Origin: an uncultured delta proteobacterium
GTDB taxonomy: Bacteria > Desulfobacterota > Binatia > JACPRU01
Reading direction: 5' to 3'
Assembly (NCBI GenBank): GCA_963745025.1
Contig: CAVUWD010000013.1
Coordinates: 192,001 to 256,000 of the forward strand
DNA length: 64,000 bases
Notes under the pieces: model-generated
The model's input: only the letters and a program-made list of their open reading frames with translations
What the model was told of the DNA's origin: nothing
The model's database searches: none
Translations under genes and position numbers: made by a program
Shown here: positions 32,911 to 62,985 of the stretch, piece after piece
How the letters are laid out: the number at the start of each line of letters is the position of its first letter
Position numbering within the stretch: position 1 is the first letter of the stretch

Positions 32911-33013
32911 GCAAGGCTCGAACCAGTGGGACCTTACCTGTCTCGACGGTCCCGCTGGCTCTCGCTTTGTCAGGCACGGTAATTTCCGCCGATAGCATTC
33001 TCATAATTGGAGA
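32911..33013 (-). promoter_or_regulatory. sigma54 promoter plus tandem enhancer-like sites (exporter operon)
   Basis: TGGTTCGAGCCTTGC at 32911-32925 (-); sites TTGTCAGGCACGGTAA (32967) and TTCTCATAATTGGAGA (32998), 31 bp apart. Confidence 0.65.
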
Positions 33014-33049
33014 CGCGCGGAATGCGCTCGCCAGCCTAGCGCATCCGCC

Positions 33050-33955
33050 CTAGGTCCCGGGAGCGAGCGGGGGAAGCGAGCGCAAGTATAATAGAATGGC
33101 CTTTACGTCGTCGGTCGTGAGAGTCGATTCGAGGTGCGGCATGTCCGGCCGCATCTCCCGCCACATGTGCCAGATTTTTTCGCGCAGATCGTTCTCGCCG
33201 GTATTTCGGAAATATGCCGAGTCGAACGCGAGCCGCTTCACATGGCGATGATTGTCTCTCTGCGAAACACCGTGGGGACCGTGACAAGAGACACAGTAAC
33301 GATAGTACAGCTCGTAGCCGGGGGAGAAGAGACGAATGAAGTGGGTGACCTCGTCGGATTCCGAGTCGGTGACGGCAGGAAACTGAGCGGGCATCCCCGG
33401 CCGACCGTGCCGAACCAGCACCCGAAGCTCGTGGTCGCTAAAGGCGGACTGGAAGTTCGGGTCCGAGAGGTCGCGCGAGCTCGGCCGCCCCGCGCTTTCG
33501 ACGTGTCCGTACCGGCCGTGACAACCGCTGCAGCGCCCGAGGTAGATCCTCCGCCCAGCATCGGCGAGCTCCCAGCGAATGGAGGGAAGGCGGCGCAGAA
33601 ACTGTTCGAGAGCCTCGGTCTCGGCGCTTCGGTCTGGCTTTGGCGCCGGGACCCTGAGCTTCGGGCGATCTTCGCGGATGCTTCCTGCTAGCTCGTCGTC
33701 CGAATGCGTCGCGATCAAATCCGTACGGCGGAGATCGGTGGGGGGCGGATTGAAGATGGCACCGTCAGGTCCATCACCAGTTCCCTCGTCTCCGTGGCAT
33801 CGCGCGCAGCTCAAGAGGTAGAGGAGCTTTCCGTGCTCGAGTCCTCCGCGAGGCGGCGAACCGGCTAGAGACGATGCCGCCGAGAGCAGTGGTAGAGCGA
33901 GTGCGAAGATCATCCAGCGTCTTGCTGCCGGTTCGGCTTCGTGGCGAACACGCAT
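33050..33955 (-). CDS. tri-haem cytochrome c, paralog 1 (start 33955 or 33913)
   Basis: Signal peptide; CARCH, CSGCH, CVSCH. Confidence 0.9.
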   Translation of the reverse strand: MRVRHEAEPAARRWMIFALALPLLSAASSLAGSPPRGGLEHGKLLYLLSCARCHGDEGTGDGPDGAIFNPPPTDLRRTDLIATHSDDELAGSIREDRPKLRVPAPKPDRSAETEALEQFLRRLPSIRWELADAGRRIYLGRCSGCHGRYGHVESAGRPSSRDLSDPNFQSAFSDHELRVLVRHGRPGMPAQFPAVTDSESDEVTHFIRLFSPGYELYYRYCVSCHGPHGVSQRDNHRHVKRLAFDSAYFRNTGENDLREKIWHMWREMRPDMPHLESTLTTDDVKAILLYLRSLPPLAPGT

Positions 33956-34082
33956 CGTCGAGCTCGACCTTCGAGAAGGGGCGGGTGCTTCAGGGCGAAC
34001 CGATGCGCTGCGGCTTCGTGCCCGAAGGCCCCGCGACGCGCTCATCGGCGCCTCGTTGCCCTCGCGGCGAGGCGACCGGAGT

Positions 34083-34919
34083 TCACTCCTCCTCGGGGAT
34101 CGGCCCTTCGGCGGGCGTCTCGGGCGCCTCGCCCTCGTCCTCGGGAACCACCGGCCGCTCGGCGCCGAGCGGCGTCATGCCGCGCCCCGCGGGAATGCGC
34201 TCCTCGGTGTTCTGATCCTCTTCCGGCGTGCGCTCGCTCTCGTCCGGGAACTCGCGGTCGACGCCCGCGATGCGGAGCCGGTCGATCAGATCGAGTCCCA
34301 TCCCGTCTGCGATGATCTGGCGGAGCACCTGCCGTTGCGGCTCTCCGGGGATGGCTCCCGAGAGCCGCACCACGCCGCCGTGACAGCGGATGCCGATCTT
34401 CAGGAGATCGGCGTCGCCGTGGGCGTGGATCCGCTCGCGCACGGCCTCGGCGAGCTCCGTATCGTCGAGCTCGCGGTACTCCTGCGGCACCGCGCGGTGT
34501 GCACCCGGTTCGAAGGGGCGTGGCGGCGCTCCGCGAGCGCGCTCGCGCTCCCCAGCGCAGTCGACGCACCAGCGCGTCTGCGGGATTGCCTCGAGGCGCG
34601 CGCCGCCGATCAACGCGCCGCAACCCTCGCAGATTCCGTAGCGTCCCGAGGGGATCTTCACCAGCGCGCGGTGAATCTCCTCTAGCTCGTGGCGGTCGCG
34701 CTCGCGGACGCAGTCCAAGAGTCGATCCATCATCTCCTGCTGGCCGCCCGCTTCGACCTCGGGCTCGCGGTTCTCCTCGATCGCTCGCAAGTTTTCCTCG
34801 ACGCCGTCGACTTCGTCGAAGAGCGCGCGCTGCCGGGCCAGAAGGGCGCGCCTCAGGGCGTCGACGGTCTTCTTGTTCAGCGCCATTTTCGCACTTCGGC
34901 TCATTCGAACCTCCTTCAT
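34083..34919 (-). CDS. DksA/TraR zinc-finger protein fused to a BON-like domain and acidic tail
   Basis: 'YGICEGCG..I...RLEAIP...CVDC', then 'DDTELAEAVRE...GVVRLSG'. Confidence 0.85.
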   Translation of the reverse strand: MKEVRMSRSAKMALNKKTVDALRRALLARQRALFDEVDGVEENLRAIEENREPEVEAGGQQEMMDRLLDCVRERDRHELEEIHRALVKIPSGRYGICEGCGALIGGARLEAIPQTRWCVDCAGERERARGAPPRPFEPGAHRAVPQEYRELDDTELAEAVRERIHAHGDADLLKIGIRCHGGVVRLSGAIPGEPQRQVLRQIIADGMGLDLIDRLRIAGVDREFPDESERTPEEDQNTEERIPAGRGMTPLGAERPVVPEDEGEAPETPAEGPIPEEE

Positions 34920-34938
34920 CGGACGGCGACTCGGCGCG

Positions 34939-35697
34939 CTAGGAGACCGCGCCGCCGGGCTTCGCGCCCGCGCGGGTCGGCGGTCCGAGCGCCGCCTCGC
35001 TCAGGAGTCGACAAACGTCGTCGTCCGAGACCTGTGTGAAATCTTCGTAGAACGCGCCGACCGCCCAGAAGAGCGTCGGCGTCAAGAGGACGATCAGCTC
35101 ATCTACCATCGGGCGGAGCCGCTCGACGGTGTCTGGAGGCGCGACGGGAACGGCGAGCACGATGCGGCCGACCCCCTGCTGGCGGAGCGCCTGGATCGCC
35201 GCGACGACCGTCGAGCCTGTGGCGATGCCGTCGTCGACCAGGATCACGGTGATGTGCGGCCCCAGCTGGAGCGGCGCGCCGCCGCGGAAGAGCTTCTGGC
35301 GCCGAGCGATCTCCTCACGTTGCCGCTTCGTGGCGCGGGAGATGAATGTCTTCGATGCGCCCGTCGTCTCGACCCCTTCGGCGTTCAGGTACGGCTCGCC
35401 GCCTTCGGCCACGGCGCCGATTGCGAACTCGGGATTCTCCGGAGCGCCGAGCTTGCGGGAGATGATGACGTCGAGTGGAAGCTCGAGGCCACGCGCAATC
35501 TCGGCCGCGGGCGGCACTCCACCGCGCGGCAGCCCGAGGACGACCGCGTTCTCCCTGCGGCGGTAACCAGCGAGCCGCGAGGCAAGCAGCCGGCCGGCCT
35601 CCAGCCGATCGCGGAAGCGACTGCGGCGGAGCACACGGCCTTCATCGAGATCTCCGCTCCGCGCAGGAGCGCTCGTGACGGGGTCCAACGAAGACAT
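34939..35697 (-). CDS. phosphoribosyltransferase (Rv0571c/Rv2030c-like; start uncertain)
   Basis: 'FRDRLEAGRLLA', 'GLPRGGVP', 'RKLGAP.NPEFAIGA', 'VDDGIATG', 'AVGAFYEDF'. Confidence 0.92.
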   Translation of the reverse strand: MSSLDPVTSAPARSGDLDEGRVLRRSRFRDRLEAGRLLASRLAGYRRRENAVVLGLPRGGVPPAAEIARGLELPLDVIISRKLGAPENPEFAIGAVAEGGEPYLNAEGVETTGASKTFISRATKRQREEIARRQKLFRGGAPLQLGPHITVILVDDGIATGSTVVAAIQALRQQGVGRIVLAVPVAPPDTVERLRPMVDELIVLLTPTLFWAVGAFYEDFTQVSDDDVCRLLSEAALGPPTRAGAKPGGAVS

Positions 35698-35723
35698 ACG
35701 AGCACCGCGCCTGTCCATGGCCT

Positions 35724-35855
35724 TTATCTCTTCGCTTCGATCGCGACCCTCTTCGATGCCGTCTTCTTTGGTGCCGGCATCGTGATCTCGAAGACGCCCT
35801 TGTCGAAGCTCGCGGGGGGCCATGAACACGGAGCCCTCTTCCTCAGACGTGCCAT
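35724..35855 (-). pseudogene. 43-aa ORF carrying only an Hsp20 C-terminus
   Basis: Read manually: MARLRKRAPCSWPPASFDKGVFEITMPAPKKTASKRVAIEAKR, matching alpha-crystallin 'A.F..GV.EI..P' and the V-x-I tail. Confidence 0.6.
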
Positions 35856-35869
35856 GGTCGTTGTTTCTT

Positions 35870-36035
35870 GCAAGTCGGGGACCAGACGGAGACACCGTCA
35901 AATCGGGACGACCTTCCCAGAACTGATAACTAACCTCGGCTGGAATCGCGGAACTGAGAATTCGGTCGTAGTCGCCGATCCCCGAGGGGCCGTGGTCCTC
36001 GGCAGGCGTCTCGTTCGAGGTGGCACGATTGTTGG
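35870..36035. promoter_or_regulatory. divergent sigma54 promoters sharing an enhancer-like pair
   Basis: TGGTCCCCGACTTGC at 35870-35884 (-); sites TTCCCAGAACTGATAA (35914) and ATCGCGGAACTGAGAA (35945); TGGCACGATTGTTGG at 36021-36035 (+, GG at -12). Confidence 0.65.
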
Positions 36036-36072
36036 TTCAATTGAGGGGGGCTGATCGACCCTCGAGGTATTC

Positions 36073-36498
36073 GTGACCACGAAACGCTGGGAGCACTTCC
36101 CTCACGGGGCCGACGTCGGCGTGCGCGGAATCGGCGCCTCGATCGAGGAGGCCTTCGAGGCGGCTGCCGAAGCGCTGATCGCTGTCGTCGTCGACCCCGG
36201 CAACGTCGCTCCGCTCGAGCGCGTCACCATCCGCTGCGAGGCGCCGGACGACGCGCTTCTCCTCGTCGATTGGCTGAACGCGCTCGTTTACGAGATGGCA
36301 ACGCGCCGGATGCTCTTCTCCCGCTTCGACGTGCGCATCGGGGACGGGAAACGCCTCGAAGCGAGCGCCTGGGGCGAGACGCTCGATCCCTCGCGGCACG
36401 AGACCGGCGTCGAGGTGAAGGGCGCGACGTACACGAGCCTTCGGGTCGAGCAGCAGCCCGACGGCACATGGCTCGCCCAGTGCATCGTCGACGTCTGA
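36073..36498 (+). CDS. archease
   Basis: '[10 protein letters not shown]', 'DWLN.L', 'EVKGATY', C-terminal 'DV'. Confidence 0.96.
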
Positions 36499-37960: not shown

Positions 37961-38374
37961 CTAGGTCTTATCGTCGGGCACCGATTTGTCGGAACCCGTG
38001 ACCTTGCCGGGAGCTTCCAAGAATGCCTTGAGAATGTCGGTCGTGGTGATGATGCCGACGAGCTTCCCGTCTTCCACGACCGGCAGGCTATCGAGCTTAC
38101 AATCGAGCATTTGCCGCGCGGCCGCTTCCAGTGGAATGGCGGGTGTGACGGTGAGTGGATTCTCGGTCATCGCCGCCGTCACCCGCGTGTCTCGGAGGTG
38201 ACCGGAATGCGCTCCGAGATCGCGATCGGTGATGATGCCGACCAGCCGATCGCCCTCGACGACGGGGAGGCGTCGAAAGCCGCCCGCATTCATCTTCTCC
38301 TGTGCGTCGATGAGGGTGTCGCGCGAAGTGATCGTGACCGGCCTTCGAGTCATATAGCTCATCACTAGCAGCAT
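37961..38374 (-). CDS. stand-alone CBS-pair protein
   Basis: Two CBS motifs, 'RRLPVV...LVGIITDRD' and 'SLPVV...LVGIITTTD'. Confidence 0.93.
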   Translation of the reverse strand: MLLVMSYMTRRPVTITSRDTLIDAQEKMNAGGFRRLPVVEGDRLVGIITDRDLGAHSGHLRDTRVTAAMTENPLTVTPAIPLEAAARQMLDCKLDSLPVVEDGKLVGIITTTDILKAFLEAPGKVTGSDKSVPDDKT

Positions 38375-38402
38375 GGTCTTTCCTCGCTGATTGCCATGAT
38401 AA

Positions 38403-38466
38403 GCGAACTGCGTGCCAGGCGAAACATTCGTTGAGAAATCGCTGCTCGTCCTCTCAGATACGGGAA
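38403..38466 (-). promoter_or_regulatory. sigma54 promoter plus enhancer-like site (CBS gene)
   Basis: TGGCACGCAGTTCGC at 38403-38417 (-); CTCTCAGATACGGGAA at 38451. Confidence 0.65.
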
Positions 38467-38498: not shown

Positions 38499-41223
38499 TC
38501 AACCAGCGGCGCGCTTTAGGCGGACCGCGGTGGCCTTGTACTGTGGGCACTTCGAGCGCGGATCGTGATGCGGACCGACGACGCGATTGGCGTGAGTCTC
38601 GGGATAGTGGAAGGAGAGGAATACGGTGCCGACGTTGACGCGCGGACGACAGCCGCGCAGGCACGCGCGTGCGGCCCCAGCGGCTCTCGACCTCGACGGC
38701 GTCGCCGTCGGCGATCGCCACGCGCGCGGCGTCTTCGGGGTGCGATCTGAGCTCGTCGACCGGCGCGAGCGTGCGGCTCGGGGTGCGGCGGGTCATGGTG
38801 CCGACGTTGTAGTGCTGGAGGACGCGGCCGGTGATCAGCAGCTAGGGATAGCCGGCGACGTCGTGCTCCGGGCTGGCGCGATAGTCGACGGCAGTCAGTC
38901 GTCCGCGGCCGCGCAGGAACTCCGTCGCGTGAACGCGTCGCTGTCCCCGGGTGATCGGGGCTAGGACACGGCCACTGTAGGCCATCTCCGCCGAGCCGGT
39001 CGTAGCGCACGCCGCCGAAGAGCGCGGGCGCAACGCGGCGCGATCTCGTCCATGACGTCGCCGGGTTGGCGTAGGACCAAGGCGCAGCCGAGCGCGTGCG
39101 CCACGTCGCGAATGATCTGCCAGTCCGGCTGCGCTTCTCCCGGGGGTACGACCGCCGGCCGCACGTGCTGGATGCGGCGCTCGGCGTTGGTGAAGGTGCC
39201 CTCCTGCTCGAGAACGCCCGCGGCGGGGAGCACCAGATGCGCGCGCTCGGCGGTCGGGTCAGGAAGAGCTCCTGGACCACGAGAAGATCGAGCGCGTCGA
39301 GGGCTTCGAGAACGCGGGTCTCGTCGGGGTCGCTCTGCGCGACGTCTTCGCCCTGGATCCACAGCGCGCGCAGTTCGCCGTGCTCGCGCGGCGTCGAGCA
39401 TCTCCGGAATCGTCAGCCCGGGCTCGAGCGGCGGAGCGCTGGCCCCAGAGCTCGCGGAAGCGGCGCGCGCACGGCCGGATCGTCGAGCGGCTGATAGCCG
39501 GTCAGCTGGGTCGGGCATGCCGCCCATGTCGGCGTTGCCCTGCACGTTGTTCTGGCCGCGCAGCGGCAGCATGCCGGCGCCCGGGCGCCCGATGCTGCCG
39601 GTGAGCAGCGCCAGGTTTGCGAGCGCCATCACCGACGCCGTGCCCTGCGTGAGCTCCGAGAGGCCGAGGCCGTGCACGAAGAGGATAGGCCCGGCGCGGC
39701 CGATCGCTTCGCGCGGCTCGCCGAATGTCGCGAGCTCGCGACCTCCGTGATCGCGCGCCGCCTCCGCGAGCGTGACCGACGCGAGAAACGCAGCGAGCTC
39801 TTCGAGACCCGCTCGCCGCGTGCGCGAGGTAGTCGCGATCGACGAGCCCCTCGTCGAGCAGGATCTTCGCGATGCGCGTTGAAGAGCGCGACGTTCGTGC
39901 CCGGGCGGAGCGCGAGATGGAGCGTCGGCGAGCGCCGCGAGCTCGATGCGCCGCGGATCGATCACGACGAGCGCGGCGCCGCGCGAGCACCGCCTGCTTG
40001 ATGCGCGCGCCGACCACCGGGTGCGCCTCGGTCGGGTTGGCGCCAGCGACCACGATCAGGCGCGCGCGCTCGATGTCGACGTAGGACGCCGTGGCGGCGC
40101 CGGTGCCGGTCACGAGCTGCAGCGCGGCCGCCGTCGACGAGTGGCAGACGCGCGCGCAGCAGTCGACGTTGTTGGTGCCGAGCGCGGCTGCGGAAGAGCT
40201 TCTGCAGCAGGTAGGCCGCCTCGTTGGTCGAGCGCGACGAGGTCAGCGCGCCGAGCGCGTTCGGGCCGTGCGCGTCGCGGATCTCGCGAGCCGGCGTGCG
40301 GCGCACGCGATCGCCTCGTCCCAGCCGACCGGCGCGGAGCGTTCCCCCGTCGCGCAGCAGCGGCGTCGTCAGCCGTTCGGGCGAGCTCTGCCAGCGCGTG
40401 CGCGTAGCGGCCCTTCGCGCACAGGTGGCCGCGGTTCACCGCCGCCTCGGCACGCCGCGGATCCGCAGCACCCTGCGCGTGCGCCCGTTTCGATCTCGAC
40501 CCGGCAGCCGACGCCGCAGTAGCCGCAGACGGACTCGGTGACCGCGATCGACGGAGTCGATGCGTCCGCAGCCGCCGGGCGTGCGACCTCGCTCCCGGTC
40601 TCGATCGAGGATCGCTCCGGTCGGGCAGAGGTCCACGCAGGCGCCGCACGCCGTGCAGGCGCTCTGCGCGAAGCGCTCGCCTGGACCGAAGACCAGGTCG
40701 GGCTTCGCCGCCGCGGCCGGCGATCGCGTAGACGAACTGGCCCTGGATCTCCTCGCAGACGTGCAGGCAGCGCCGGCACGTGATGCAGCGCGTCGGGATC
40801 GAAGCGGAGGTAGGGATGGCTTCGATCGATCGCGGTCTCACGCGCGTGGTAGCCGAACGGCGATCGGCCTGCGTCGAACTGCCGGAGCAGCCGCTCGAAC
40901 TTGCTTCCTCGCTCGCTCGGCACGAAACGTCCTTCGCGATGCTCACTCGCCACCAGGCCGAGAATCTCGCGGCGAAGCCGACCGAGGCGCGGGCTCTCCG
41001 TCCGCACCGACATCCCCGCGCCAAGCGGCGAATGGCAGGCCGCGTGGGGCCGATCATCCCCGTCGATCTCGACGAGACAGATCCGGCAGTTCCCCTCCGG
41101 CGCGAGGCCTGGGTGGTAGCAGAGCGTCGGAACGTCGATACCGTGCCGCCGTGCCGCCTCGAGAATCGTGTCGCCGTCGCGGACTTCGACGGTCGTGCCG
41201 TCGATGATCGCAGTACGCCTCAT
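38499..41223 (-). CDS. formate dehydrogenase alpha subunit (FdsA/FdhF-like); many frameshifts
   Basis: N-terminal 2Fe-2S 'VPTLC...GNCRICLV', 'CGYCGVGC', 'NNVDCCARVCH', 'PLRGQNNVQG', 'GTFTNAERR', spread over many frames. Confidence 0.88.
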
Positions 41224-42868: not shown

Positions 42869-42913
42869 CGCGGGGGATCTCACCTCGTCGCAGTCTATCG
42901 AGCAGCTGCCAAA

Positions 42914-42928
42914 GCATGAGTCGTGCCG
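42914..42928 (-). promoter_or_regulatory. sigma54 promoter of the fdh operon
   Basis: CGGCACGACTCATGC, 46 nt upstream of the ATG. Confidence 0.6.
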
Positions 42929-44773: not shown

Positions 44774-44851
44774 GAACGAGGGCGAGACGGTTTCTCAGCG
44801 CTTGGAAGGATCGGCGGGTCCCCGGCTTCGCGAGCCGGGCACGGTCCATGC
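44761..44851 (+). promoter_or_regulatory. enhancer-like pair plus sigma54 promoter (BON-MFS-cytochrome operon)
   Basis: TTCTCAACGGTAGGAA (44761), TTCTCAGCGCTTGGAA (44792), GGGCACGGTCCATGC at 44837-44851. Confidence 0.72.
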
Positions 44852-44864
44852 TTTTCGACGGTAC

Positions 44865-49670: not shown

Positions 49671-49685
49671 GGGCACGAGGGTTGC
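49671..49685 (+). promoter_or_regulatory. sigma54 promoter (acyltransferase)
   Basis: GGGCACGAGGGTTGC (GG-N10-GC). Confidence 0.55.
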
Positions 49686-49698
49686 TTGCTTCGAGCTC

Positions 49699-50582: not shown

Positions 50583-50597
50583 CGGCACGAACCTTGG
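50583..50597 (+). promoter_or_regulatory. sigma54-like promoter (Hsp20 remnant-CBS)
   Basis: CGGCACGAACCTTGG (GG at -12). Confidence 0.45.
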
Positions 50598-50638
50598 ACG
50601 GTCGTGGCCAGGACTTTGAAGCGAAAGTAGACACAATC

Positions 50639-54502: not shown

Positions 54503-55839
54503 GCTTTCGCTTTGGCAGGGGCCCTCGGAGGTCCCGCGGCGGCGAAGTCCCAGATGAAGGCGACCAGGCCGAGCGAGAACACGACCGAGGTTGCTAGCCA
54601 CATCAGGTAATGGACTTGGATCTTCTGCTGGGTCTCGAGGTAGCCGAAGCCCATGATGCGCTCGAGGTAGGTTTGCGCGAGGCCCGCCGCCGCCAGAGCC
54701 ATCGTCATTCCGAGCATGCCACCGACCATCAACCAGAAGGCGGCGATCCCGAGCTTGGTCTGCCGCTCCTCGGCCGGCGTGCCGGTCAGCTCTGGAAGCG
54801 CATAGGTGATCATGCCGAGCGTGATCATCGCGTAGGCGCCGAAGAACGCCATGTGGCCGTGCATGGTGGTGATGTGGGTGCCATGTGTCCAGCGGTTCAC
54901 CTGCGGCCAGGTGTGCGCGAGTCCGAGGATACCGGCGCCGAGCGTCGAGAAGATCGCCGAGCCGATCGTCCAGTGAAGCGCCAGTGTGTTGGGGTGTCCA
55001 AGACCCGAGCGCCGCAGAATGCTGTAGGCGTAAGCCGCCATCGCCAGGAAGGCGAGCGGCTCGAGCGCCGAGAATACGCCGCCGATCCACAACCAGTACG
55101 GCGGTACGCCAATCCAATAGTAATGGTGGCCCGTTCCCAGAACGCCGGAGAGAAATGTCAAGCCGACGATCACGTAGAGCCACTTCTCCATGACTTCCCG
55201 GTCCGCTCCGGAGAGGCGGATCAGCAAGAAGGCGAGCATGCCTCCGAGCACGAGCTCCCACACGCCCTCCACCCAGAGATGCACCACCCACCAGCGATAG
55301 AAGCGATCGAGCGTGTAGTTGTCGAAATTGATCAGCGCGGGAACGAAGAGAAGCGCGGTCGCCGCGAGCCCACCGACGAGGATCCCTTCGGTCGTCGTGA
55401 AGCGTCGGGCGCTGCGGATCGTCATCACCAGATTGACCAGGAACATGGCCATGACGACGACGACGCCGAGCTTCAGCACGAAGGGCATCTCGAGCAGCTT
55501 CCGCCCCTCGGTCACGCCGAAGAGATAGCGGTCGACGGTGATCACGCCGATCGCCAGCCAGAGACCCAGCTGAAGATAAGCGAGACGCGTGCTCCAGATC
55601 TCCGTGCGCGACTCCTCCGGAACGATGAAGTACGCGGCGCCCATGAAGCCCGTGATCGTCCAGACGAGCAGCAGGTTCGTATGGATCTCCTTCGAGGTGG
55701 CGAAGTTGAGCGCGTCGATCAACGGGTCCGGGCCGAGGTACTTGGCGAGGCTGAGAAACCCGAACACGACCTGCAGCCCGAAGAGCAATATGGCGGAGAA
55801 AAAGTAGGCGTAGGCGATGCGCTGAGATTCGTAGGTCAT
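54499..55839 (-). CDS. norB: cytochrome c-dependent nitric oxide reductase catalytic subunit
   Basis: 'HTN', '[11 protein letters not shown]', 'GTGHHYYW', 'HGHMAFFG'; 446 aa (cNOR size). Confidence 0.96.
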
Positions 55840-55859: not shown

Positions 55860-56669
55860 TTACTGCAGGGTCTTCAAGTAGGCGACCAGGTCCTTCACCT
55901 GCTCGGGCTTCAACACCTTTTCGTAAGTGTCCGGCATGAGCGAGGTCCCCGCGGGGGTTCTATATTTGTCACCGGGAACGATGAACGCGCTCGGCTTGAG
56001 GATCGACTCCTCGAGATAGTCCGCGCCAATCTTCGCCGAGCCCTTGTACTGCGGGTCATGAATGCGCTCGTCGGCGTGCTTGCCGATCGCGGCGAGCGAT
56101 GGACCGACCAACACCACGCCCGGCTCCGTCGCGTGACAGGTCAGGCAGATCCCTGCGCCGTTGAAGAGCGCCTTGCCACGGCTCGATGGCTCGTCCGAGG
56201 TGGCAACCCCGGCCACACCGGGAAGCCCGCGACTCGACACACCCGAGACGAGGATCGGCCGCGGCGGCCAGCCATTGGTGTCGATGTGTCCGACCCAGTC
56301 GAGAAACGCGACCACGGCCGCGATCTCGTCTGGGGAGAGACCGAGTGTGGGCATTAGGCGCCCGTCGCGAGCCTCGGAATAAAACTTCGACGGGTCGGCG
56401 AGGAACTGGGTCAGATAGGCAGGCCCGCGTTGCGAGACGATCTGCGTCAGGTCGGGCGCATAGTAAGCCCCTTCCCCGAGAAGCGTGTGGCAGTTCTCGC
56501 AGTTGTACTTCCCCCATACGTGCTTGCCGTGCCGCACCGTTTCGGTGAGGCCCTCCTCGTGGGTGCGCGCGGCGATCGTGGTGTGCGTGTGGATCGTCAG
56601 CAGGATGAACAGCGTGACGAAGAAGAACGTGCCGGCGAAGAAGAAGCCACGCGTGGTGGACTTGGTCAT
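55860..56669 (-). CDS. norC: NorC with an additional C-terminal cytochrome c domain (di-haem)
   Basis: N-terminal TM; '[18 protein letters not shown]...MP', second 'CLTCH...GPSL...SLMP'. Confidence 0.92.
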
Positions 56670-56890: not shown

Positions 56891-56894
56891 GACC

Positions 56895-57032
56895 CTACAC
56901 TCCGATGCGCGTGATGTTGTTGAGCCCGATCCCGACGGCGTAGAGCATTGCCGCGACGATCAGAGCGATGACTACGCCGCTCAACGACCAGACGAAGACG
57001 TTGCCATCTGCCGACGAAGGAGTCGTTTGCAT
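56895..57032 (-). CDS. 45-aa single-TM protein, not in the ORF track
   Basis: Read manually: MQTTPSSADGNVFVWSLSGVVIALIVAAMLYAVGIGLNNITRIGV; stop lies 4 nt before the next ATG. Confidence 0.6.
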   Translation of the reverse strand: MQTTPSSADGNVFVWSLSGVVIALIVAAMLYAVGIGLNNITRIGV

Positions 57033-57064
57033 GCCTCGGCTGTTACGGCAATTTTCCGTGGTGA

Positions 57065-57178
57065 GCAAGCGGCGGAACCAGCGAGGGCGCTTCCGATGGT
57101 CAAATGAAACTCCATCCCACGTAGTGGTCGCTTCTCGCTTTCAGGAAGCGTCCGAGCGTGCCTTCGCAAAAACGGGAA
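57065..57178 (-). promoter_or_regulatory. nor operon control region: sigma54-like motif plus enhancer-like pair
   Basis: TGGTTCCGCCGCTTGC (GG-N11-GC, one base too long); TTCTCGCTTTCAGGAA (57132) and TTCGCAAAAACGGGAA (57163), 31 bp apart. Confidence 0.6.
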
Positions 57179-57199
57179 TTCGTCGGTGCTCGACCGATC

Positions 57200-57474
57200 T
57201 AGCCGGGAAGCGCGTTTCGACGATCGTTCCGGTGTTGCCGCCCGGCACTCGTGTCACCACGGCGAGGCATCACGTGCAGCACGTGGCGACCGAATACGGA
57301 GTCGTCGACCTCTCGTTGCTCGCCGACACGGAGCGTCCCGCGGCGCTCATCGCGCTTGCGCATCCGGACTTTCGGGACGAGCTGAGAAGGGCGATCGCCG
57401 AGCGGCCTTCCGCGAGTCGAGGCCGTCCCCTTCCGGCAGTGGCATCATGGCCCTACCGAAGATTTCCCAGGTAG
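57200..57474 (+). pseudogene. C-terminal remnant of an acetyl-CoA hydrolase/transferase
   Basis: 'STIVP.L..G..VTT.R..V..V.TEYGVVDL......ER..ALI.LAHPDFR.EL'; no N-terminal domain. Confidence 0.75.
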
Positions 57475-58341
57475 CGCAGGCAGAGAGCGAAGGTAGACGA
57501 GAATCGCCTTGACCTCGGCAGCGCTCAGGGTTTCCTGGAAGTGCGTCATCGACGCGGTCTTGTCCTCGAGCATGTGCCAAATCCCTTGGCGGACCTCGTC
57601 GGAAGAGTGCGTGCTGAAGAAGCGCTCGTCGAAGGCAAAATGCGGCGCGGGCCGAGTCAGGAGCGCGCCGGTGGCGCCTTCGCCGTGGAGGCCATGGCAA
57701 GATGAGCAGAAGCGGTCGTAGAGCTCGTAGCCGGGTGAGAGGAGACGAATGAAGCGTGCGAGATCTGCGGCTTCTCGCTCGGTCACGCGCGGCACGAGCG
57801 CCGGCATGCTGCGCCGGCCGTGTCGGGCCAGGCCGCGTAGCTCGCGGTCGCTGACCCCGGCCTGAAATGCCGGAGCGGAGAGATCGAGCGGCCGGTGCTC
57901 CACGCCCGGAGGGAGCTGCGCTTGGGGGTGACCGTAGCGATCATGGCAAGGAGTGCAGCGCTCGTAATAGATCTGCTCGCCAGCATCGACCCATCGCCAC
58001 GATACCGAGGGCAGGTCGTGTAGAAACTGATAAAGGGCTTCCGTATCCGCCGCCTGCCGCGCGATCGATTCGGGGCGGAATTGGAGCTCCATCTTCTTTC
58101 CTGCCTGGATCCTCTCGATTAGCTTCTCGTCGGAGTAGGAGCTCAAGACGTCGTCGCGCCGAAGATCGGCGGGGCGGTTGCGCAGATAGGTGGCATCCGG
58201 ACCGTCACCGATCGCGGTCGGGCCGTGGCAATGGGAGCAATGGGCCATGTAGAGCGCCCGTCCCTTGTCGATGGCGGCTACGCGGGGAATCGGCGAGCCG
58301 AGATCGAAGAGCAGGAAGAGCACTACCGGGACAAGTGTCAT
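57445..58341 (-). CDS. tri-haem cytochrome c, paralog 3
   Basis: Signal peptide; CSHCH, CTPCH, CSSCH. Confidence 0.9.
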   Translation of the reverse strand: MTLVPVVLFLLFDLGSPIPRVAAIDKGRALYMAHCSHCHGPTAIGDGPDATYLRNRPADLRRDDVLSSYSDEKLIERIQAGKKMELQFRPESIARQAADTEALYQFLHDLPSVSWRWVDAGEQIYYERCTPCHDRYGHPQAQLPPGVEHRPLDLSAPAFQAGVSDRELRGLARHGRRSMPALVPRVTEREAADLARFIRLLSPGYELYDRFCSSCHGLHGEGATGALLTRPAPHFAFDERFFSTHSSDEVRQGIWHMLEDKTASMTHFQETLSAAEVKAILVYLRSLPALPGKSSVGP

Positions 58342-58389
58342 CGCGCTACCGCAGGCTTGCCGCGCTCAGTTTCATGCTTCGAAGGGTTA

Positions 58390-58546
58390 GCAAGTAACCT
58401 GCCACGACATCGGAGCCGAATTGCGTCACCTCGGTCGATCGAGTCTCGTAGCGCCGGGAAGCCTTCACCCGGCGTTTCTCATTTCTTGGACGAAGCGACG
58501 CCGTATCCTTAACTGGAGGATGAGCATAGGATGGTACGAATCCTGC
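58390..58546. promoter_or_regulatory. symmetric divergent sigma54 promoters around one enhancer-like pair
   Basis: TGGCAGGTTACTTGC at 58390-58404 (-); CTCGTAGCGCCGGGAA (58445); TTCTCATTTCTTGGAC (58476); TGGTACGAATCCTGC at 58532-58546 (+). Confidence 0.72.
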
Positions 58547-58559
58547 TGACTTCGGACAA

Positions 58560-58781
58560 GTGGAAAACGTAACGGAGCTGCTGCCTTTCGTACTTTCGGT
58601 TATGGCGATCGCAGGCATCGTGTTCCTCGCCACGATCACGATCTCGGCGGCGTGGGTGTATCGATCCTTGCGCGGCATTCACCGAGCCGAATGGCCATTG
58701 ACGGGCAAGCTCGCGGCGATCGAGCTCGACGCGGTTCGGCGGCTGCATTCTTTGGCATCCAGCACCGTCGCGTCTCATTAA
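58560..58781 (+). CDS. small single-TM hypothetical protein
   Basis: Hydrophobic N-terminal half; directly downstream of a sigma54 motif. Confidence 0.45.
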   Translation: MENVTELLPFVLSVMAIAGIVFLATITISAAWVYRSLRGIHRAEWPLTGKLAAIELDAVRRLHSLASSTVASH

Positions 58782-58804
58782 CGACAGATTTTCTGGAGGG
58801 CTCC

Positions 58805-60021
58805 ATGGACTTCAGCATTCCCGACGAGATCCGCGAGCTTTGCGACGGCATCCAACGCTTCATGGACGAGCACGTCTATCCGCTCGAGCGCTCCGAGCGA
58901 TGGCGCATGGAAGCTGGGCGGCCCGGCGTATCCGCCGCGATGAAGGCGGTGCAGGAACGGGCGAAAGCCCTCGGGTATTGGGCGTTCCACCTGCCGGCCG
59001 AGGCCGGAGGCGCAGGCATCCCGTTCATGCATTACGTCTACGTCAACGAGATCCTCGGCAGGAGCCCGTTCGGGCCGGCTTGCGTGGGCTCCCAGGCGCC
59101 GGACTCGGGGAACGCGGAGATTCTCTGGCGCTTCGGCACGCCGGAGCAGAAGGAAGCGCTGGCTCGAGCCGCTGGTCGCGGGCGATATCCGCAGCTGCTT
59201 CTCGATGACGGAGCCGGAGGTCGCGGGCTCCGATCCGCGCTGGCTCCGCACCACCGCGGTTCGCGACGGCGATCACTACGTCGTCAACGGTCACAAGTGG
59301 TTCTCGAGCGGTGCGCACGGCGCGGCGTTCGCGATCGTCATGGCGCAAGACAATCCCGCAGCATCCCGACCCGCATCGTCGCTTCAGCCAGATCATCGTG
59401 CCGACCGACACGCCGGGCTTCACGATCGAGCGCGGGCATCCCGGTGATGGGCGACGACGACAACCATCACGCCGAGATTCGCTACGAGGACTGCCGCGTG
59501 CCCGGTCACCAATCGTCTCGGCGAGGAGGGATCGGGGTTCGCGATCGCGCAGGAGCGCCTCGGCCCCGGGCGGATCCATCACTGCATGCGCTGGCTCGGC
59601 GTGGCCGAGCGCGCCTTCGAGCTGATGTGTCGCTACGCCACCGAGCGCGAGGTGTTCGGCTCGGCGCTCGCGCGCAAGGCGAACATCCAGGACTGGATCG
59701 CCGAGGCGCGCGCGGACATCCATGCCGCGCGGCTGATGACGCTCCACGCGGCCTGGAAGATCGACACCGCAGGGCAGCGAGGCCGCGCGCGAGGAGATCT
59801 CGCTCATCAAGTTCTTCGGCGCGCAGCGTGCTGCACGAGCGTGGTCGACAAGGCGATCCAGGTGCACGGCGCCGCCGGCGCCACCGAGGATCATGCCGCT
59901 GTCGATGTTCTATCGCCAGGCTCGTCTCGCGCGCATCTACGACGGCCCAGACGAGGTCCACAAGATGGTCGTGGCGCGGCGGATCCTCGCGCCATACGAG
60001 TCGTCGCGCCGCATCACCTAG
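58805..60021 (+). CDS. acyl-CoA dehydrogenase (multiple frameshifts)
   Basis: '[11 protein letters not shown]', '[10 protein letters not shown]', 'NGHKWF', '[12 protein letters not shown]', 'QVHG', '[10 protein letters not shown]'. Confidence 0.9.
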
Positions 60022-60074
60022 GTGTCTTTGCCGCTACCGTTGGGGAGAAGGCGCCGACTGGCCGGGTGAGGGGG

Positions 60075-60740
60075 CTACCTTCTCAACGGTCGGGCGCGTC
60101 CACTTCCGCGATTCTTCGTCGCCGGCCGCGAGATCTCGCTCGCCTTCGACTCCGTGGTCGTTTTCGGCGGCGCGCGGCGCTCGCCCCAAAGGCGCTTCGA
60201 GATGCCCCGCAGCGCAGCGCCGATGCTCGCCGGCGGTGCCGCTTCGCGGCTGCGTCGATGGGCTTCCACACGTCGCCGCAATCCTTGGTCGGTCGCGCGA
60301 CGCTCGATCATCGCGAGCAGCAGCTCGACGTGCTCTTCGATGCTGCAATGCTCGTCGGTGCTGGCGCCTGCGGATTCGACGCCGCTGATGCGCAAGAGCT
60401 CGGCGTAAACGCGATCGAGCTCCAGCTCCTCGAGCTCCAGCGCAGTCTTCAAAGCGTCGTCGACGTTCGTCGGCGCGGGCCACGAAGTCAGCGCACGCAC
60501 GAAGCCGCGAATCGAGGCGAGGCTCGTGGCGTCGATCGCCTCGAGCCGTTCGGGCTTCTCGATCGCGAGCGCCGCGGCCGCCGAGAGCAACGAGGCGTGC
60601 TGTCGCTCCGCAGACGCCATCTCGGTCCAGAAGGATGCGAGGTCTCGATCGGCGTGCCAACGAGCCGCGAAACCTTGGTAGAGCTCGCCGATATGGCTCT
60701 CCAGCTCCGCGCACTCGCGAAGTAGATCCGCCAGCTGCAC
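60075..60740 (-). CDS. ferritin-like/rubrerythrin-like protein 2
   Basis: 'LE..IGELY', 'FW.EMA.AERQH', 'ALELEELELD', 'EEH'; paralog of the 49131 gene. Confidence 0.72.
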   Translation of the reverse strand: MQLADLLRECAELESHIGELYQGFAARWHADRDLASFWTEMASAERQHASLLSAAAALAIEKPERLEAIDATSLASIRGFVRALTSWPAPTNVDDALKTALELEELELDRVYAELLRISGVESAGASTDEHCSIEEHVELLLAMIERRATDQGLRRRVEAHRRSREAAPPASIGAALRGISKRLWGERRAPPKTTTESKASEISRPATKNRGSGRARPLRR

Positions 60741-60758: not shown

Positions 60759-61220
60759 TCACGAACGAGCTTCCGGAACGGTCGTCAGCACTGGACAGGT
60801 GGAGCTCCGAACCACCTTTTCGGCTACGCTACCGAGCGCCACGCGCCAAACACCCTTTCTCCCGTGCGTCGCCATCACCACCAAGTCGATTCCCAGCTCC
60901 TTCTCCGCGCGAAGGATCTCGGCGATAGGATCGCCGACTCGCGTCATCGTCGAATAGGGGACTTCGCCGTCGAGAGCTTCGAGCGCCGTCGCCTCGAGCT
61001 TGCGCCTCGCCTCGGCCTCCACCCACGCTTCCGCCCCGGCGGCCTGCTCGACCGCGCAGTAATGCTGCTCCGAGAACGCAGCCTCGCGCAGCGGGATGAC
61101 GTGTAGAAGAACGAGCTTGGCGTGGTCGTGGATCGCCAGGCCCTTCGCGAGTTGAAGCGCGGCGAGCGACCCGTCGTCGAACTCGAATGGGACGAGAATC
61201 GACTGAAATGGATGGGTCAT
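60759..61220 (-). CDS. universal stress protein
   Basis: 'ILVPFEF', 'DLVVMATHGR.G....LGSVAEKVVR...CPVL'. Confidence 0.95.
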   Translation of the reverse strand: MTHPFQSILVPFEFDDGSLAALQLAKGLAIHDHAKLVLLHVIPLREAAFSEQHYCAVEQAAGAEAWVEAEARRKLEATALEALDGEVPYSTMTRVGDPIAEILRAEKELGIDLVVMATHGRKGVWRVALGSVAEKVVRSSTCPVLTTVPEARS

Positions 61221-61255: not shown

Positions 61256-62092
61256 TCAGTGATAGAGGAATAGGGGAATGGGACTGTCACGGAGCACGGT
61301 CTTCGTTACCGACCCGAGCAGGAACTCCTTCAGCACGGGTTGCCCGTAGGCGCCCATCACCATGAGCTCTGCGCCGAGCTCTCGTGCCCAGTGGAGGAGC
61401 ATCTCCGCGGTCGATTCGACCGGCGCCTCGTCGACGTGCATCTCGGTCTTGACCTCATGGGCGACCAGAAAGTCGAGCGCCCTTTGGGCCGAACGCCGCG
61501 CCTCCATCTTACTCGCGCCGATTGCGACGATGTGGGCCGATTGCGATCTCTGGAGGCCGAGGCCGTGGAAGAGCTGGAGCGCCCGCGACGCCTGGAGGCT
61601 TCCGTCATAGGCGATCACCGTGGCGCTGCCCGCGATCAGCTTGCGCGGCACGGTGACCACGGGCCGCGGGGCGCTTCTCAATACCCGCTCGAGAGTCTCG
61701 CAGGGACGCCGCCGCGTCTCGAAATGAAAGTACGTCTGCTGGCCGAGCAGGATCACGTCGTGCGATTGCGCCTCGAGGTTGATCTGCTCGTGAGGCAAAC
61801 CGACGTCTTCGAGCGCGCGCCAGGCGACGCCGCTTTCGCGACAGCGATCGCCGAAATGCTCCAGGAATTCTTCGACCCGACGCCTCGCATCGGCTAGCAA
61901 GGTCTCGTCGCGGTGGTGCTTGAAGGCCGCTCCGCCGATCGGCGCCGGCGCGCTCTTGACGATCGTCGGCTCGTCGACGATCCCGAGTCCGACGAGCTCC
62001 GCCCCGAAATGGCGCGCCCAGCCGATGCCCAGATCGACCGCGCTCACGCTGAACTCCGATCCATCCAAACCGACGAGGATCTTGCGGATCAC
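61256..62092 (-). CDS. tandem-domain universal stress protein
   Basis: 'ILVGLDGS', 'IAYDGS', 'MGAYG.....LLGSVT'. Confidence 0.93.
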   Translation of the reverse strand: MIRKILVGLDGSEFSVSAVDLGIGWARHFGAELVGLGIVDEPTIVKSAPAPIGGAAFKHHRDETLLADARRRVEEFLEHFGDRCRESGVAWRALEDVGLPHEQINLEAQSHDVILLGQQTYFHFETRRRPCETLERVLRSAPRPVVTVPRKLIAGSATVIAYDGSLQASRALQLFHGLGLQRSQSAHIVAIGASKMEARRSAQRALDFLVAHEVKTEMHVDEAPVESTAEMLLHWARELGAELMVMGAYGQPVLKEFLLGSVTKTVLRDSPIPLFLYH

Positions 62093-62239
62093 TTGGGTGC
62101 CCCTCGTCTTGGCGATGCTGCGAGAGAGGGCGTCGCCCTCGCCGTGGCGAAGCCACCGATCGAGACCCAAAAGGCGCCGAAGAGCATCAGCGTCACCACG
62201 AATGTCAGCGGGAGTGCGGACGTCAGGGGTCGATCCTCC

Positions 62240-62518
62240 TCAATGCTCGTAGCCCGTGTGCGGGCATCCAGCTTCGGCAGCGGCGTCGAGCACGCGGTGG
62301 CCTCGAGCAATCAGCGCTGCCACAAGACCCTCGAGGCTGGGCGTGCGGACGCGCAGTCGGTACGCTCCGTTCTGCATGGGATCCTTTGCTGGCGCGGTCG
62401 CCACGAGGTCGCCTCCCTCGTCGCGGATGATCGTCGAGACTTCCGATAGCGATAGTCGCCCGCGCGATGGTCGGACGACGATCGTCTCGACGGTGCCGAT
62501 CGCGTCTGCGACGATCAT
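62240..62518 (-). CDS. small ACT-like domain protein
   Basis: 'GRLSLSEVSTII...GG.L...LRV.......AL...G.RV' resembles the ACT domain of AcuB-type proteins; GAGGAG RBS. Confidence 0.5.
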   Translation of the reverse strand: MIVADAIGTVETIVVRPSRGRLSLSEVSTIIRDEGGDLVATAPAKDPMQNGAYRLRVRTPSLEGLVAALIARGHRVLDAAAEAGCPHTGYEH

Positions 62519-62531
62519 CCGATTCTCCTCT

Positions 62532-62870
62532 TCACACGACCGCGTCCTCTGCGGCGGCGAGCACGAACTCGAAAGCCGCCGTCGCCTGAGCGAGCTTCTG
62601 CACCGCGAGTGACGCAAACTCCGTACCGAGGTCGATGGCTTTGTTGGGATTGTAGCGTTCGAGCGCCGCACGGTAGGCGTTCTCGAGCTCGACGCGACTC
62701 GCGCCCGGTCTTACGCCGAGCAGCGCGAAAGCATGCGCTAGCGCAGAGAGCGGCCCGAGCCCGAGACGGTCGAGTTGCTGCGCAGCGGACAACTCATTCG
62801 GGGTGATCCTGCCATCGGCGGCCGTCATCGCGACCGCGAGCCGGACGATCATTCTTCGCGGGTCTCCCAC
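62532..62870 (-). CDS. miniature TerB/J-domain (DjlA-like) protein
   Basis: 'AADGRITPNE' plus 'LLGV..GAS..E...AYR....YNPNK'. Confidence 0.6.
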   Translation of the reverse strand: MGDPRRMIVRLAVAMTAADGRITPNELSAAQQLDRLGLGPLSALAHAFALLGVRPGASRVELENAYRAALERYNPNKAIDLGTEFASLAVQKLAQATAAFEFVLAAAEDAVV

Positions 62871-62883
62871 GCCGCTTCGTGAA

Positions 62884-62985
62884 GCGAGCGGCGTGCCACG
62901 CGATTTCCGGAGTTTTTCTATGGTTTTGCCAGAACTCTTCTCATTCCTGGCAAATCTCGCGATGCGATTCTCTCGGACTTCGGAA
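62884..62985 (-). promoter_or_regulatory. sigma54 promoter plus enhancer-like pair
   Basis: TGGCACGCCGCTCGC at 62884-62898 (-); TTCTCATTCCTGGCAA (62938) and CTCTCGGACTTCGGAA (62970), 32 bp apart. Confidence 0.7.

Follow-up and report, generated by a model that had tools for sequence, protein, structure and literature searches.

A 64-kb stretch of DNA from an uncultured member of the class Binatia (contig C13:192001-256000, called the window here and numbered from its first letter) carries, at 33-64 kb, an island of genes preceded by -24/-12 promoters of the sigma-54 type and by tandem copies of a palindromic box. The box conforms to TTCYCR-N4-YGRGAA, its copies stand in pairs 31-32 bp apart, and about 36 such operators occur in the source genome, with counterparts in many other genomes of the class. 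This cis-regulatory pattern is almost certainly real and robust. Judged from their arrangement, the boxes very probably mark an NtrC-type enhancer regulon, and the paired dyads would probably be the upstream activator sequences of a single NtrC-family response regulator, most likely the protein encoded at C13:259589-261022, shortly beyond the end of the window. From the sequence, we infer which protein binds the boxes, that it activates rather than represses, and what its signal and the sign of that signal may be.

Paired boxes and sigma-54 promoters

The source genome (G000) comprises 5.65 Mb in 20 contigs, with a GC content of 66%, a completeness of 92.65%, and a contamination of 7.6%. An earlier note on this DNA had listed 15 boxes in the window, all of which are present, two of them being weak (32967 and 58445). 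In the window, matches to TTCTCANNNNTGGGAA with up to three mismatches number 44, compared with 25.6 ± 5.0 in shuffled versions, and none of 100 shuffles reached 44. For the genome scan, the box was generalized to TTCYCANNNNTGRGAA, which with up to three mismatches matches 3015 sites. Among these sites, the proposed 31-32-bp spacing stands out clearly: the distance is 31 bp in 20 pairs and 32 bp in 11, and every other spacing between 16 and 120 bp yields ≈2 pairs, mostly one to six. Because 25 of these 31 pairs fall outside the window, the spacing peak is not a restatement of the sites listed earlier. A symmetrized count matrix built from 61 sites gives the consensus TTCYCR-N4-YGRGAA. When the whole pair was written as an IUPAC pattern and up to three mismatches were allowed, it occurred at 27 places in the source genome and the reversed pattern at none. 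The spacing histogram and this paired-pattern scan used the consensus only, whereas the position weight matrix (PWM) scans and the promoter-coupling analysis described below used a PWM trained on the pairs.

According to a crude gene caller based on GC content at third codon positions (GC3), which places ≈73% of the genome in open reading frames (ORFs), 30 of 39 pairs fall between genes. Of the nine "genic" pairs, seven are found within 212 nt of the start of an over-extended ORF or 5 nt from where an ORF ends, and only one of the other two is deep inside an ORF. Removal of three redundant entries from the 39 pairs leaves 36 distinct operators. One weak pair with 30-bp spacing is found in identical form at C13:78067-78112 and C15:98278-98323, which may reflect a duplicated segment or redundancy arising from the contamination.

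All 12 of the -24/-12 elements that had been reported in the island are found when the sequence is read and scored against the consensus, the earlier minus-strand coordinates giving the low end of each element. Sigma-54 sites were scored with an ad hoc weighted consensus, not with a trained PWM. Nine of the elements have the form GG-N10-GC, two carry GG at -12 (TTGG at 36021 and 50583, as claimed), and one, at the nor operon, has a spacer 1 bp too long (57080-57064, the N11 variant proposed for 57065). Sites scoring at least 20.5 number 137 genome-wide, and six of them lie within the 32-kb island, which makes up 0.57% of the genome and would be expected to hold ≈0.8.

The predicted co-occurrence of boxes and sigma-54 sites holds across the genome. 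An outward-facing site scoring at least 19.5 lies at 15-150 bp from 19 of the 36 operators, compared with ≈0.5 expected from the genome-wide density of 592 such sites, and sites flanking operators are enriched about 37-fold. The distances from the center of the proximal box to the GG of the -24 element are clustered at 28.5, 37.5-42.5, 47.5-49.5, 59.5-62.5, 69.5-74.5, and 82.5-87.5 bp, with a single case at 117.5 bp. In a Rayleigh test on 26 distances, two redundant entries included, p was ≈8e-4 at a period of 10.5 bp and 5e-5 at 11 bp, and the test was not significant at 8 bp. Together, the clustering and the Rayleigh result extend to the whole genome the steps of about one helical turn that had been noticed in the island. 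By their position, several operators appear to serve two divergent promoters; at 58445/58476, the two promoters are each 49.5 bp away. A separate observation concerns the -12 element, which reads TTGG or TTGT instead of TTGC at C6:212565, C10:222858, C10:236865, C16:66210, and window position 36021, each in phase downstream of an operator, and this suggests that TTGG/TTGT is a tolerated promoter variant in the source lineage.

The paired pattern recurs in other Binatia. It is matched 27 times in G001, a member of the same genus, 13 times in G006, seven times in G007, and eight times in G018, which belongs to another family; the reversed control gives 0 in each. Over 121 genomes of the class, there are 346 paired matches and seven matches to the reversed control, and 73 of the 121 genomes have at least one. 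(G086, an unpublished genome among the 121, contributes one match, and no claim depends on it.) Outside the class, a Corallococcus, an Acidoferrales, a Tectomicrobia, a Nitrospira, and a "delta proteobacterium" metagenome-assembled genome (MAG) give 1, 0, 0, 0, and 0 matches, respectively, versus 0, 1, 0, 0, and 0 for the control, which is background level in a very small sample.

Individual operators are conserved as well, as had been anticipated for orthologous promoters; this applies to the nor, BON, 62938, 44761, and 49079 loci. The 62938 pair (operator O11) has an almost unchanged counterpart in G001, as have the 44761 box in G007 and the 49079 pair (operator O6) in both G001 and G006. 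At the nor promoter, G001 and G006 retain the boxes and the -24/-12 element, and the sequence between them has diverged. A positional scan of BON orthologues found boxes ahead of a sigma-54 promoter at five of five loci from two families, the distance being longer in G001. Between orthologous operators, the half-sites alone are conserved, and spacers and flanks differ.

A candidate regulator, its possible input, and competing explanations

The genome holds one sigma-54 (rpoN) gene, a 527-aa frame with a Sigma54_DBD match at C6:408760-409236 (E 1.6e-61), and 23 AAA+ domains of bacterial enhancer-binding proteins (bEBPs) above the curated cut-off, plus weaker hits. The earlier note had placed the activator outside the window, and a bEBP gene with its own operator indeed lies 3.6 kb past the window end. 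Its product, encoded at C13:259589-261022 on the minus strand, is a 478-aa protein of REC-AAA+-HTH_8 architecture (Response_reg, 1.2e-29; Sigma54_activat, 1.6e-71; AAA_lid_14; HTH_8, 2.5e-9) with GSFTGA at residue 244, the Walker B sequence IFLDE, and a receiver Asp context. The order of elements beyond the window is sigma-54 promoter, CBS gene, box pair, and bEBP gene, the pair having a spacing of 30 bp and lying 16-61 bp upstream of the ATG. Nearby are a divergent operator with two sigma-54 promoters between Usp and CBS genes (window-equivalent 64.05-64.17 kb) and an operator with a promoter in front of a small ORF, after which come COX2 and COX1. Of all 23 bEBP genes, only this one, with its AAA+ domain at C13:260015, has an operator within 1 kb; the next has a weak pair at 2 kb, and for the rest the distance is at least 11 kb. 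On these grounds, the bEBP adjacent to the island is probably the activator. What did not hold is the notion of a regulon specific to the island, since the ≈36 operators are spread over the genome and form a second hot spot on contig C10.

Among named homologues of the regulator, those at 68-69% identity come from two "Candidatus Binatia" MAGs, and all other matches are at 49% or below, which points to Binatia as the class of the source genome. Clear orthologues (at least 60% identity) are found in 64 of the 121 Binatia genomes. At least two operators occur in 45 of these 64 genomes versus nine of the 57 without such an orthologue (Fisher p 2e-9, ignoring phylogeny). Of 30 orthologue loci, 10 have a pair within 1.5 kb, a density some 12 times that of the genome as a whole, and the pair directly upstream of the regulator orthologue is kept in G001, G006, and G002. 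In a PWM scan of 80 regulator-homologue loci, the GC-trained PWM produced many spurious pairs in AT-rich genomes, and only two Binatia loci were kept.

The genes beside the orthologues point to a possible input. At 13 of 29 loci in relatives, a kinase of Protoglobin-HisKA-HATPase_c architecture lies beside or near the regulator orthologue, which it adjoins without an intervening NmpS/NmpT relay of the kind described below for Myxococcus. The gene directly upstream of the orthologue is a CBS gene at seven loci and a Usp gene at five, 12 in all, and cytochrome c and TrkA K+ channel genes are common neighbors. Since the neighbor of the regulator in other Binatia is a protoglobin (heme) histidine kinase, the ancestral input was probably O2 or another heme ligand; that the physiological signal is oxygen or a heme ligand is, in our judgment, evenly balanced. 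In G007 (C161:23035-27414), the protoglobin histidine kinase and the bEBP orthologue occupy one open frame of 892-894 aa, possibly a sensor-kinase-activator fusion or the result of a missing stop. The second island of the source genome, on C10, encodes a REC-PAS-HisKA-HATPase_c-REC kinase (C10:174114-176099) and a GAF-PAS kinase, which are candidate sensors and nothing more.

In the mechanism that we propose, a dimer of the regulator would sit on each dyad, both on the same DNA face, given that centers 31-32 bp apart correspond to three helical turns. Phosphorylation of the receiver domain would lead to assembly of the AAA+ oligomer, which would touch sigma-54 RNA polymerase held closed at a -24/-12 promoter whose GG lies ≈28-87 bp from the center of the proximal box, in one-turn steps, and ATP hydrolysis would then open the promoter. 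The ≈36 operators, concentrated in the window island and the C10 island, would place under this control the genes for Usp, CBS, and BON proteins, Hsp20, Cpn60, a hibernation factor, archease/RtcB, RtcA, cNOR, and NosZ. Further putative targets are cytochromes, a heme-copper oxidase, HypA/HypB, a K+ channel, and the regulator's own CBS-bEBP operon.

Three other explanations compete with this one. The boxes could be sigma-54 enhancers of a different bEBP, the C13:260015 regulator being only one of its targets. The genome offers some 23 bEBPs for that role, co-occurrence of operator and orthologue is imperfect and would be seen with any member of the regulon, and the pair that precedes the bEBP gene is atypical in its 30-bp spacing and TTCTTG half-sites. 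Nevertheless, the other bEBP genes all lack an operator within 2 kb, and in many relatives the orthologues are embedded among CBS, Usp, cytochrome c, and K+ channel genes and operators. In addition, the putative autoregulation of a CBS-first operon parallels that of NmpR (PMC11841059), and we therefore regard an activator encoded elsewhere as unlikely. More distant still is a regulator that is not a bEBP at all, either a repressor or a sigma-70-type activator, with the nearness of -24/-12 elements being incidental or a second layer of control. Such a protein would suit the two operators at which no sigma-54 promoter fits, just upstream of the K+ channel and bEBP start codons, where a repressor or roadblock might be expected, and it would suit those operators that have no strong sigma-54 site within 150 bp. 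It is at odds with the ≈37-fold enrichment of flanking sigma-54 sites, which face outward and are helically phased, and with the symmetry of the divergent promoters about 58445/58476. Tandem dyads three turns apart are also the usual layout in the NtrC family (PMC11841059), and we consider a regulator of this other kind improbable. As for chance, a compositional artifact, or a dispersed repeat with no regulatory role, the degeneracy of single boxes (the 3015 sites) and the exact duplication of one weak pair (C13:78067, C15:98278) might invite such a view. The reversed controls (0 versus 27 in the source genome, 7 versus 346 in 121 genomes), the sharp spacing peak, the intergenic position of the pairs, and the conservation of only the half-sites between orthologous operators contradict it, and we give it hardly any credence. 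A repeat or mobile-element origin of the boxes was dropped for the last of these reasons, since only the half-sites are conserved.

Several observations weigh against activation of the island by the neighboring bEBP from these boxes. Seventeen of the 36 operators have no sigma-54 site scoring at least 19.5 within 150 bp, several of these having -12 TTGG variants at in-phase distances. The exact sequence TGGCAC-N5-TTGC has no match in the 64-kb window, and no island element fits it perfectly. Most of the island promoters are coupled to operators, as the earlier note had held, but those at 42914, 49671, and 50583 have none within 160 bp. Promoter 49671 has O6 as its closest operator, located 553 bp upstream on the far side of a conserved 181-aa gene that points the other way; G001 and G006 retain this promoter together with the O6 boxes, at distances of 553 and 594 bp. 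Two operators are internal to operons and have no canonical promoter downstream: 49079/49111 directly precedes the start codon of the K+ channel gene, and the other that of the bEBP gene. From this placement, they could act as distant enhancers or as repressor/roadblock sites. The nor-promoter spacer is canonical in G001 and G006 (TGGTCCGCCGCTTGCT and TGGTCCGTCGCTTGCT), so the extra A in the source genome would be a lineage-specific lesion or an assembly indel. The PWM count of pairs scoring above 16 (25 at 31 bp and 19 at 32 bp, versus ≈5 at other spacings) is not independent, as the PWM was trained on the pairs. Across genomes, 11 of the 64 with an orthologue have no match to the pattern, nine of the 57 without a clear orthologue have at least two (among them G021 and G107, which have homologues at 47-50% identity), and co-occurrence with the operator is something that any gene of the regulon would display. 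The boxes of G021 are shifted, to the AT-richer TTCGCA...TGAGAA. On the side of the signal, no protoglobin was found in the source genome at its 92.65% completeness, either with a relative's kinase or with PF11563, and the only protoglobin of its congener G001 is a globin-STAS protein and not a kinase. Furthermore, if a directly wired globin kinase behaved like the Anaeromyxobacter kinase described in PMC11841059, it might switch the regulator on under oxic and not hypoxic conditions.

Genes of the island and of the wider putative regulon

Pfam annotation of the 111 ORFs at 27-64 kb of the window assigns to the island at 33-64 kb five Usp, two CBS-pair proteins, and one BON protein, archease and RtcB, a cNOR cluster (NorC, NorB, NorQ, and NorD), and four c-type cytochromes. 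A TrkA-type K+ channel, a DksA/TraR zinc-finger protein, a phosphoribosyltransferase, and PolX are also encoded, as are an efflux pump and a NuoEF/molybdopterin oxidoreductase cluster with domains distributed among several frames.

At the left end of the island, operator O1 (32967-32982, weak, PWM 8.8, and 32998-33013, 13.8; 31 bp apart) and the minus-strand promoter TGGTTCGAGCCTTGCA (32910..32925, score 18.5) precede efflux genes for a MacB/FtsX permease, an ABC ATPase, HlyD, and OEP (28621-32879, minus strand). Operator O2 (35914-35929, PWM 18.9, and 35945-35960, 13.2; 31 bp apart) is common to two divergent promoters. On the minus strand, TGGTCCCCGACTTGCA (35869..35884, score 17.5, 38.5 bp to the box center) lies ahead of phosphoribosyltransferase, DksA/TraR zinc-finger protein, and cytochrome c genes (33050-35901). 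On the plus strand, TGGCACGATTGTTGGT (36021..36036, TTGG at -12, 69.5 bp to the box center) leads into archease (36073-36498) and then RtcB (to 37940). The CBS-pair protein gene at 37961-38374 (minus strand) follows promoter TGGCACGCAGTTCGCT (38402..38417, minus strand, score 21), which is 42.5 bp from the center of a box. This box, CTCTCAGATACGGGAA (38451..38466, PWM 16.8), is a single site, as had been claimed, with only a half-site-like TTCTTT 30 bp further on.

Promoter CGGCACGACTCATGCT (42913..42928, minus strand, score 20.5), which has no operator nearby, precedes NuoE/NuoF-like and molybdopterin oxidoreductase genes (38500-42830, minus strand). The Pfam domains of this formate-dehydrogenase-like cluster are spread across at least four overlapping frames, and the Complex1_51K domain is divided between ORFs 41987-44767 and 41223-42275; the split frames represent either pseudogenes or assembly indels. 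Operator O5 (44761-44776, PWM 17.2, and 44792-44807, 16.4; 31 bp apart) overlaps the 3' end of the PolX gene. Its center is 38.5 bp from the plus-strand promoter GGGCACGGTCCATGCT (44837..44852, score 20.5), behind which lie the BON gene (to 45536), an MFS gene (45545-46828), and a cytochrome c gene (46609-47709).

Operator O6 (49079-49094, PWM 13.3, and 49111-49126, 13.8; 32 bp apart) is situated between the 181-aa ORF (49134-49676, minus strand) and the TrkA-type K+ channel gene (48038-49117, minus strand), without a canonically placed promoter. The 181-aa ORF has no Pfam match; its product shows 79% identity in G001 and 62% in G006, and in these two genomes and the source genome it always lies between a sigma-54 promoter and the K+ channel operator. 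The plus-strand promoter GGGCACGAGGGTTGCT (49671..49686, score 21.5) precedes an acyltransferase gene (to 50571). It is followed by the candidate promoter CGGCACGAACCTTGGA (50583..50598, plus strand, score 18.5, TTGG at -12), which has no operator nearby and stands ahead of a 62-aa ORF and a CBS protein gene (50833-51264).

The nor operon has operator O9 (57132-57147, PWM 16.5, and 57163-57178, 17.5; 31 bp apart) and the promoter TGGTTC-CGCCGC-TTGCT (57064..57080, minus strand), 60.5 bp from the box center. Downstream are small ORFs, NorC (55860-56669), NorB (54499-55839), NorQ, and NorD (51636-53633). In ORF 56968-57471 (plus strand), which abuts the operator, an acetyl-CoA hydrolase/transferase domain is represented by its C-terminal end alone (profile positions 85-153 of 154), as if a rearrangement had left only part of a gene. 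Operator O10 (58445-58460, weak, PWM 7.9, and 58476-58491, 14.2; 31 bp apart) stands between two divergent promoters, TGGCAGGTTACTTGCT (58389..58404, minus strand, score 21.5), which precedes a di-heme cytochrome c gene (57445-58341, minus strand), and TGGTACGAATCCTGCT (58532..58547, plus strand, score 19.5). The latter is followed by a small ORF and an acyl-CoA-dehydrogenase-like gene (58560-60722) of uncertain frame, which is split between frames 58652-60388 and 59586-60722. Within this gene, many 1-bp indels separate window positions 58800-59600 from RNA-library contigs of relatives, which suggests assembly indel errors and would also bear on the nor-promoter spacer that is 1 bp longer. Operator O11 (62938-62953, PWM 15.8, and 62970-62985, 11.5; 32 bp apart) is 48.5 bp, measured from the box center, from the minus-strand promoter TGGCACGCCGCTCGCT (62883..62898, score 21), with a 112-aa ORF, a tandem Usp gene (61256-62170), a Usp gene (60759-61220), and a 221-aa ORF (60075-60740) downstream.

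Five RNA libraries had small word shares of 0.05-0.09 with this DNA, and four of them were compared with the window. Their contigs, 61-544 bp in length and mostly 90-99% alike, come from relatives and cover bits of the nor, cytochrome, acyl-CoA dehydrogenase, and Usp genes. Such contigs cannot reveal transcript starts, strand, or level, and we therefore draw nothing from them. Elsewhere in the window, the 16-mer TTCTTAACCTTCGTAA occurs at 15715 (plus strand) and 15787 (minus strand) as an inverted repeat 72 bp apart (15715-15802), between the divergent genes 14653-15663 (minus strand) and 15820-17643 (plus strand); it is unrelated to the paired boxes.

Beyond the window, the second hot spot (C10:136-240 kb, loci L140-L145) contains more than 10 operators. 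Its genes encode six Usp, five CBS proteins, and one BON protein, three Hsp20 and two Cpn60 chaperones, and an S30AE hibernation factor fused to a cold-shock domain, together with RtcA, a LonB-like protease, two glycogen phosphorylases, PFK, PRPP synthetase, malic enzyme, adenosine kinase, CFA synthase, and c-type cytochromes. Scattered operators precede genes for HypA/HypB, a receiver-domain PilB-like ATPase, a PfkB kinase, and more Usp and BON proteins. At C16:433006-433085 (L148), three boxes with 32-bp spacing lie upstream of a strong sigma-54 promoter, TGGCACGGTGTTTGCC, which is followed by a cytochrome c gene and a gene for a NosZ-like nitrous oxide reductase. Together, this content reads as a program for persistence under low oxygen or limited energy.

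Combining these lines of evidence, we tentatively propose, with slightly less than even confidence, that Binatia have a DosR-like dormancy/anoxia program under one sigma-54 enhancer protein driven by a heme kinase. In this proposal, a class-specific operator would place close, phased enhancers often between two divergent promoters. At least two conserved intra-operon cases would lie ≈500 bp from the promoter that they possibly serve, and the source lineage would have lost the globin kinase and had its regulon rewired to another sensor. If true, this would be a convergent, sigma-54-based solution to hypoxic persistence and would provide a ready regulon map for an uncultured group. Members of the class occur widely in soils and sediments. 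To our knowledge, the class has no cultured member and is known only from metagenomes, so that nothing is known of its gene regulation. The analysis contributes an operator (TTCYCR-N4-YGRGAA twice, 31-32 bp apart), a candidate regulator, and, in relatives, its putative heme-based sensor. The ≈36-operator regulon predicts survival of oxygen or energy limitation through denitrification steps (cNOR and NosZ, of relevance to the turnover of N2O), ribosome hibernation, chaperones, and RNA repair.

Comparison with known systems

In the literature on Binatia sigma-54, Binatota stress, and globin-coupled kinases, we found no description of the operator TTCYCR-N4-YGRGAA or of its regulon. The main text of a paper on the Desulfovibrio sigma-54 regulome mentions neither Usp nor CBS and presents no similar motif. 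The general layout is familiar from NtrC at glnAp2, where tandem palindromes on one DNA face lie upstream of a GG-N10-GC promoter; enhancers of the NtrC family support oligomerization of the activator and depend on the face of the helix when they are close to the promoter. The Binatia system shares with NtrC/glnAp2 a regulator of REC-AAA+-Fis-type HTH architecture and tandem palindromic sites on one face. It differs in half-site sequence, in a role that is not nitrogen control, and in enhancers that are unusually close and strictly phased (28-87 bp), with one operator often placed for two divergent promoters.

In gene content, the regulon resembles that of DosR/DevR in Mycobacterium tuberculosis, which comprises many Usp, a CBS protein, the alpha-crystallin Hsp20, a hibernation factor, sugar/phosphofructokinase, and a phosphoribosyltransferase, and which serves a hypoxia/NO persistence program with heme-based kinase input. 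DosR, however, is a NarL/LuxR-type regulator that acts at sigma-70-type promoters through a 20-bp box, whereas the Binatia candidate would be an NtrC-type AAA+ activator working with sigma-54; the two systems are alike in function but do not belong to one family. NorR (nor genes) and RtcR (rtcBA) are dedicated sigma-54 activators of Proteobacteria, and in the Binatia island, too, nor genes and rtcB stand behind sigma-54 promoters. Here, these promoters share their paired boxes with the Usp, CBS, and BON genes, which argues for one global regulon and not for dedicated NorR/RtcR circuits. Dedicated control of nor and rtcB was accordingly dropped as an explanation, homologues of NorR and RtcR not having been searched for.

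The closest described system, with the same layout and logic, is NmpRSTU of Myxococcus xanthus, which Bretl et al. are also said to have treated in 2018. According to McAllister et al. (2025, PMC11841059), the protoglobin kinase NmpU acts via the hybrid kinase NmpS on the NtrC-like NmpR, whose binding sites, two GCGCA-N5-TGCGC dyads with 14-15 bp between them, lie upstream of sigma-54 promoters. These promoters belong to a CBS-first operon of which nmpR is part, to a Usp gene, to a cbb3 oxidase cluster, and to hemN-hemerythrin; hypoxia induces mxan_4236. A computational survey links Usp and CBS genes to sigma-54 in Planctomycetia as well (PMC12316311).

The two systems have in common an NtrC-like response regulator, sigma-54 promoters, and two dyads about three helical turns apart (15-bp dyads with a 14-15-bp gap in the case of NmpR). 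They also share a protoglobin histidine kinase input, seen in Binatia beside the orthologues of relatives and not in the source genome. Both regulons contain CBS, Usp, and terminal oxidase genes and the regulator's own genes, with a CBS gene first in the regulator operon; a CBS-first operon with its own sites is present in the source genome, and the CBS-bEBP order is found at seven loci of relatives. The operators differ in sequence, TTCYCR-N4-YGRGAA in Binatia versus GCGCA-N5-TGCGC for NmpR, and the NmpR consensus with up to two mismatches shows no excess in the source genome at 29-30-bp center spacing (20 and 25 pairs, versus ≈20 elsewhere). No NmpS/NmpT relay lies beside the globin kinases of relatives, and no globin kinase was found in the source genome. 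In Myxococcus, NmpS is a hybrid REC-HisKA-CA kinase and NmpT a double-receiver protein; a kinase of the second island, the REC-PAS-HisKA-HATPase_c-REC protein at C10:174114-176099, might or might not act on the regulator. At the level of sequence, Myxococcota matches to the regulator show 41-43% identity, as any paralogue would, in a comparison that included no NmpR sequence; the best Corallococcus match (41%) lies in a locus with GGDEF, REC-HK (histidine kinase), and bEBP genes and no protoglobin within 10 kb.

The Binatia regulon is also considerably larger, with ≈36 operators in the source genome versus seven NmpR-bound promoters, and it adds denitrification, chaperones, ribosome hibernation, and RNA repair. 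The mechanism proposed here is that of textbook NtrC-type activation, and the advance therefore lies in scope and in a new operator, not in principle. In these terms, the NmpR paradigm, in which a globin kinase acts on a sigma-54 activator of CBS, Usp, and oxidase genes, would extend to a second lineage, one in which the operator is different and the regulon much larger.

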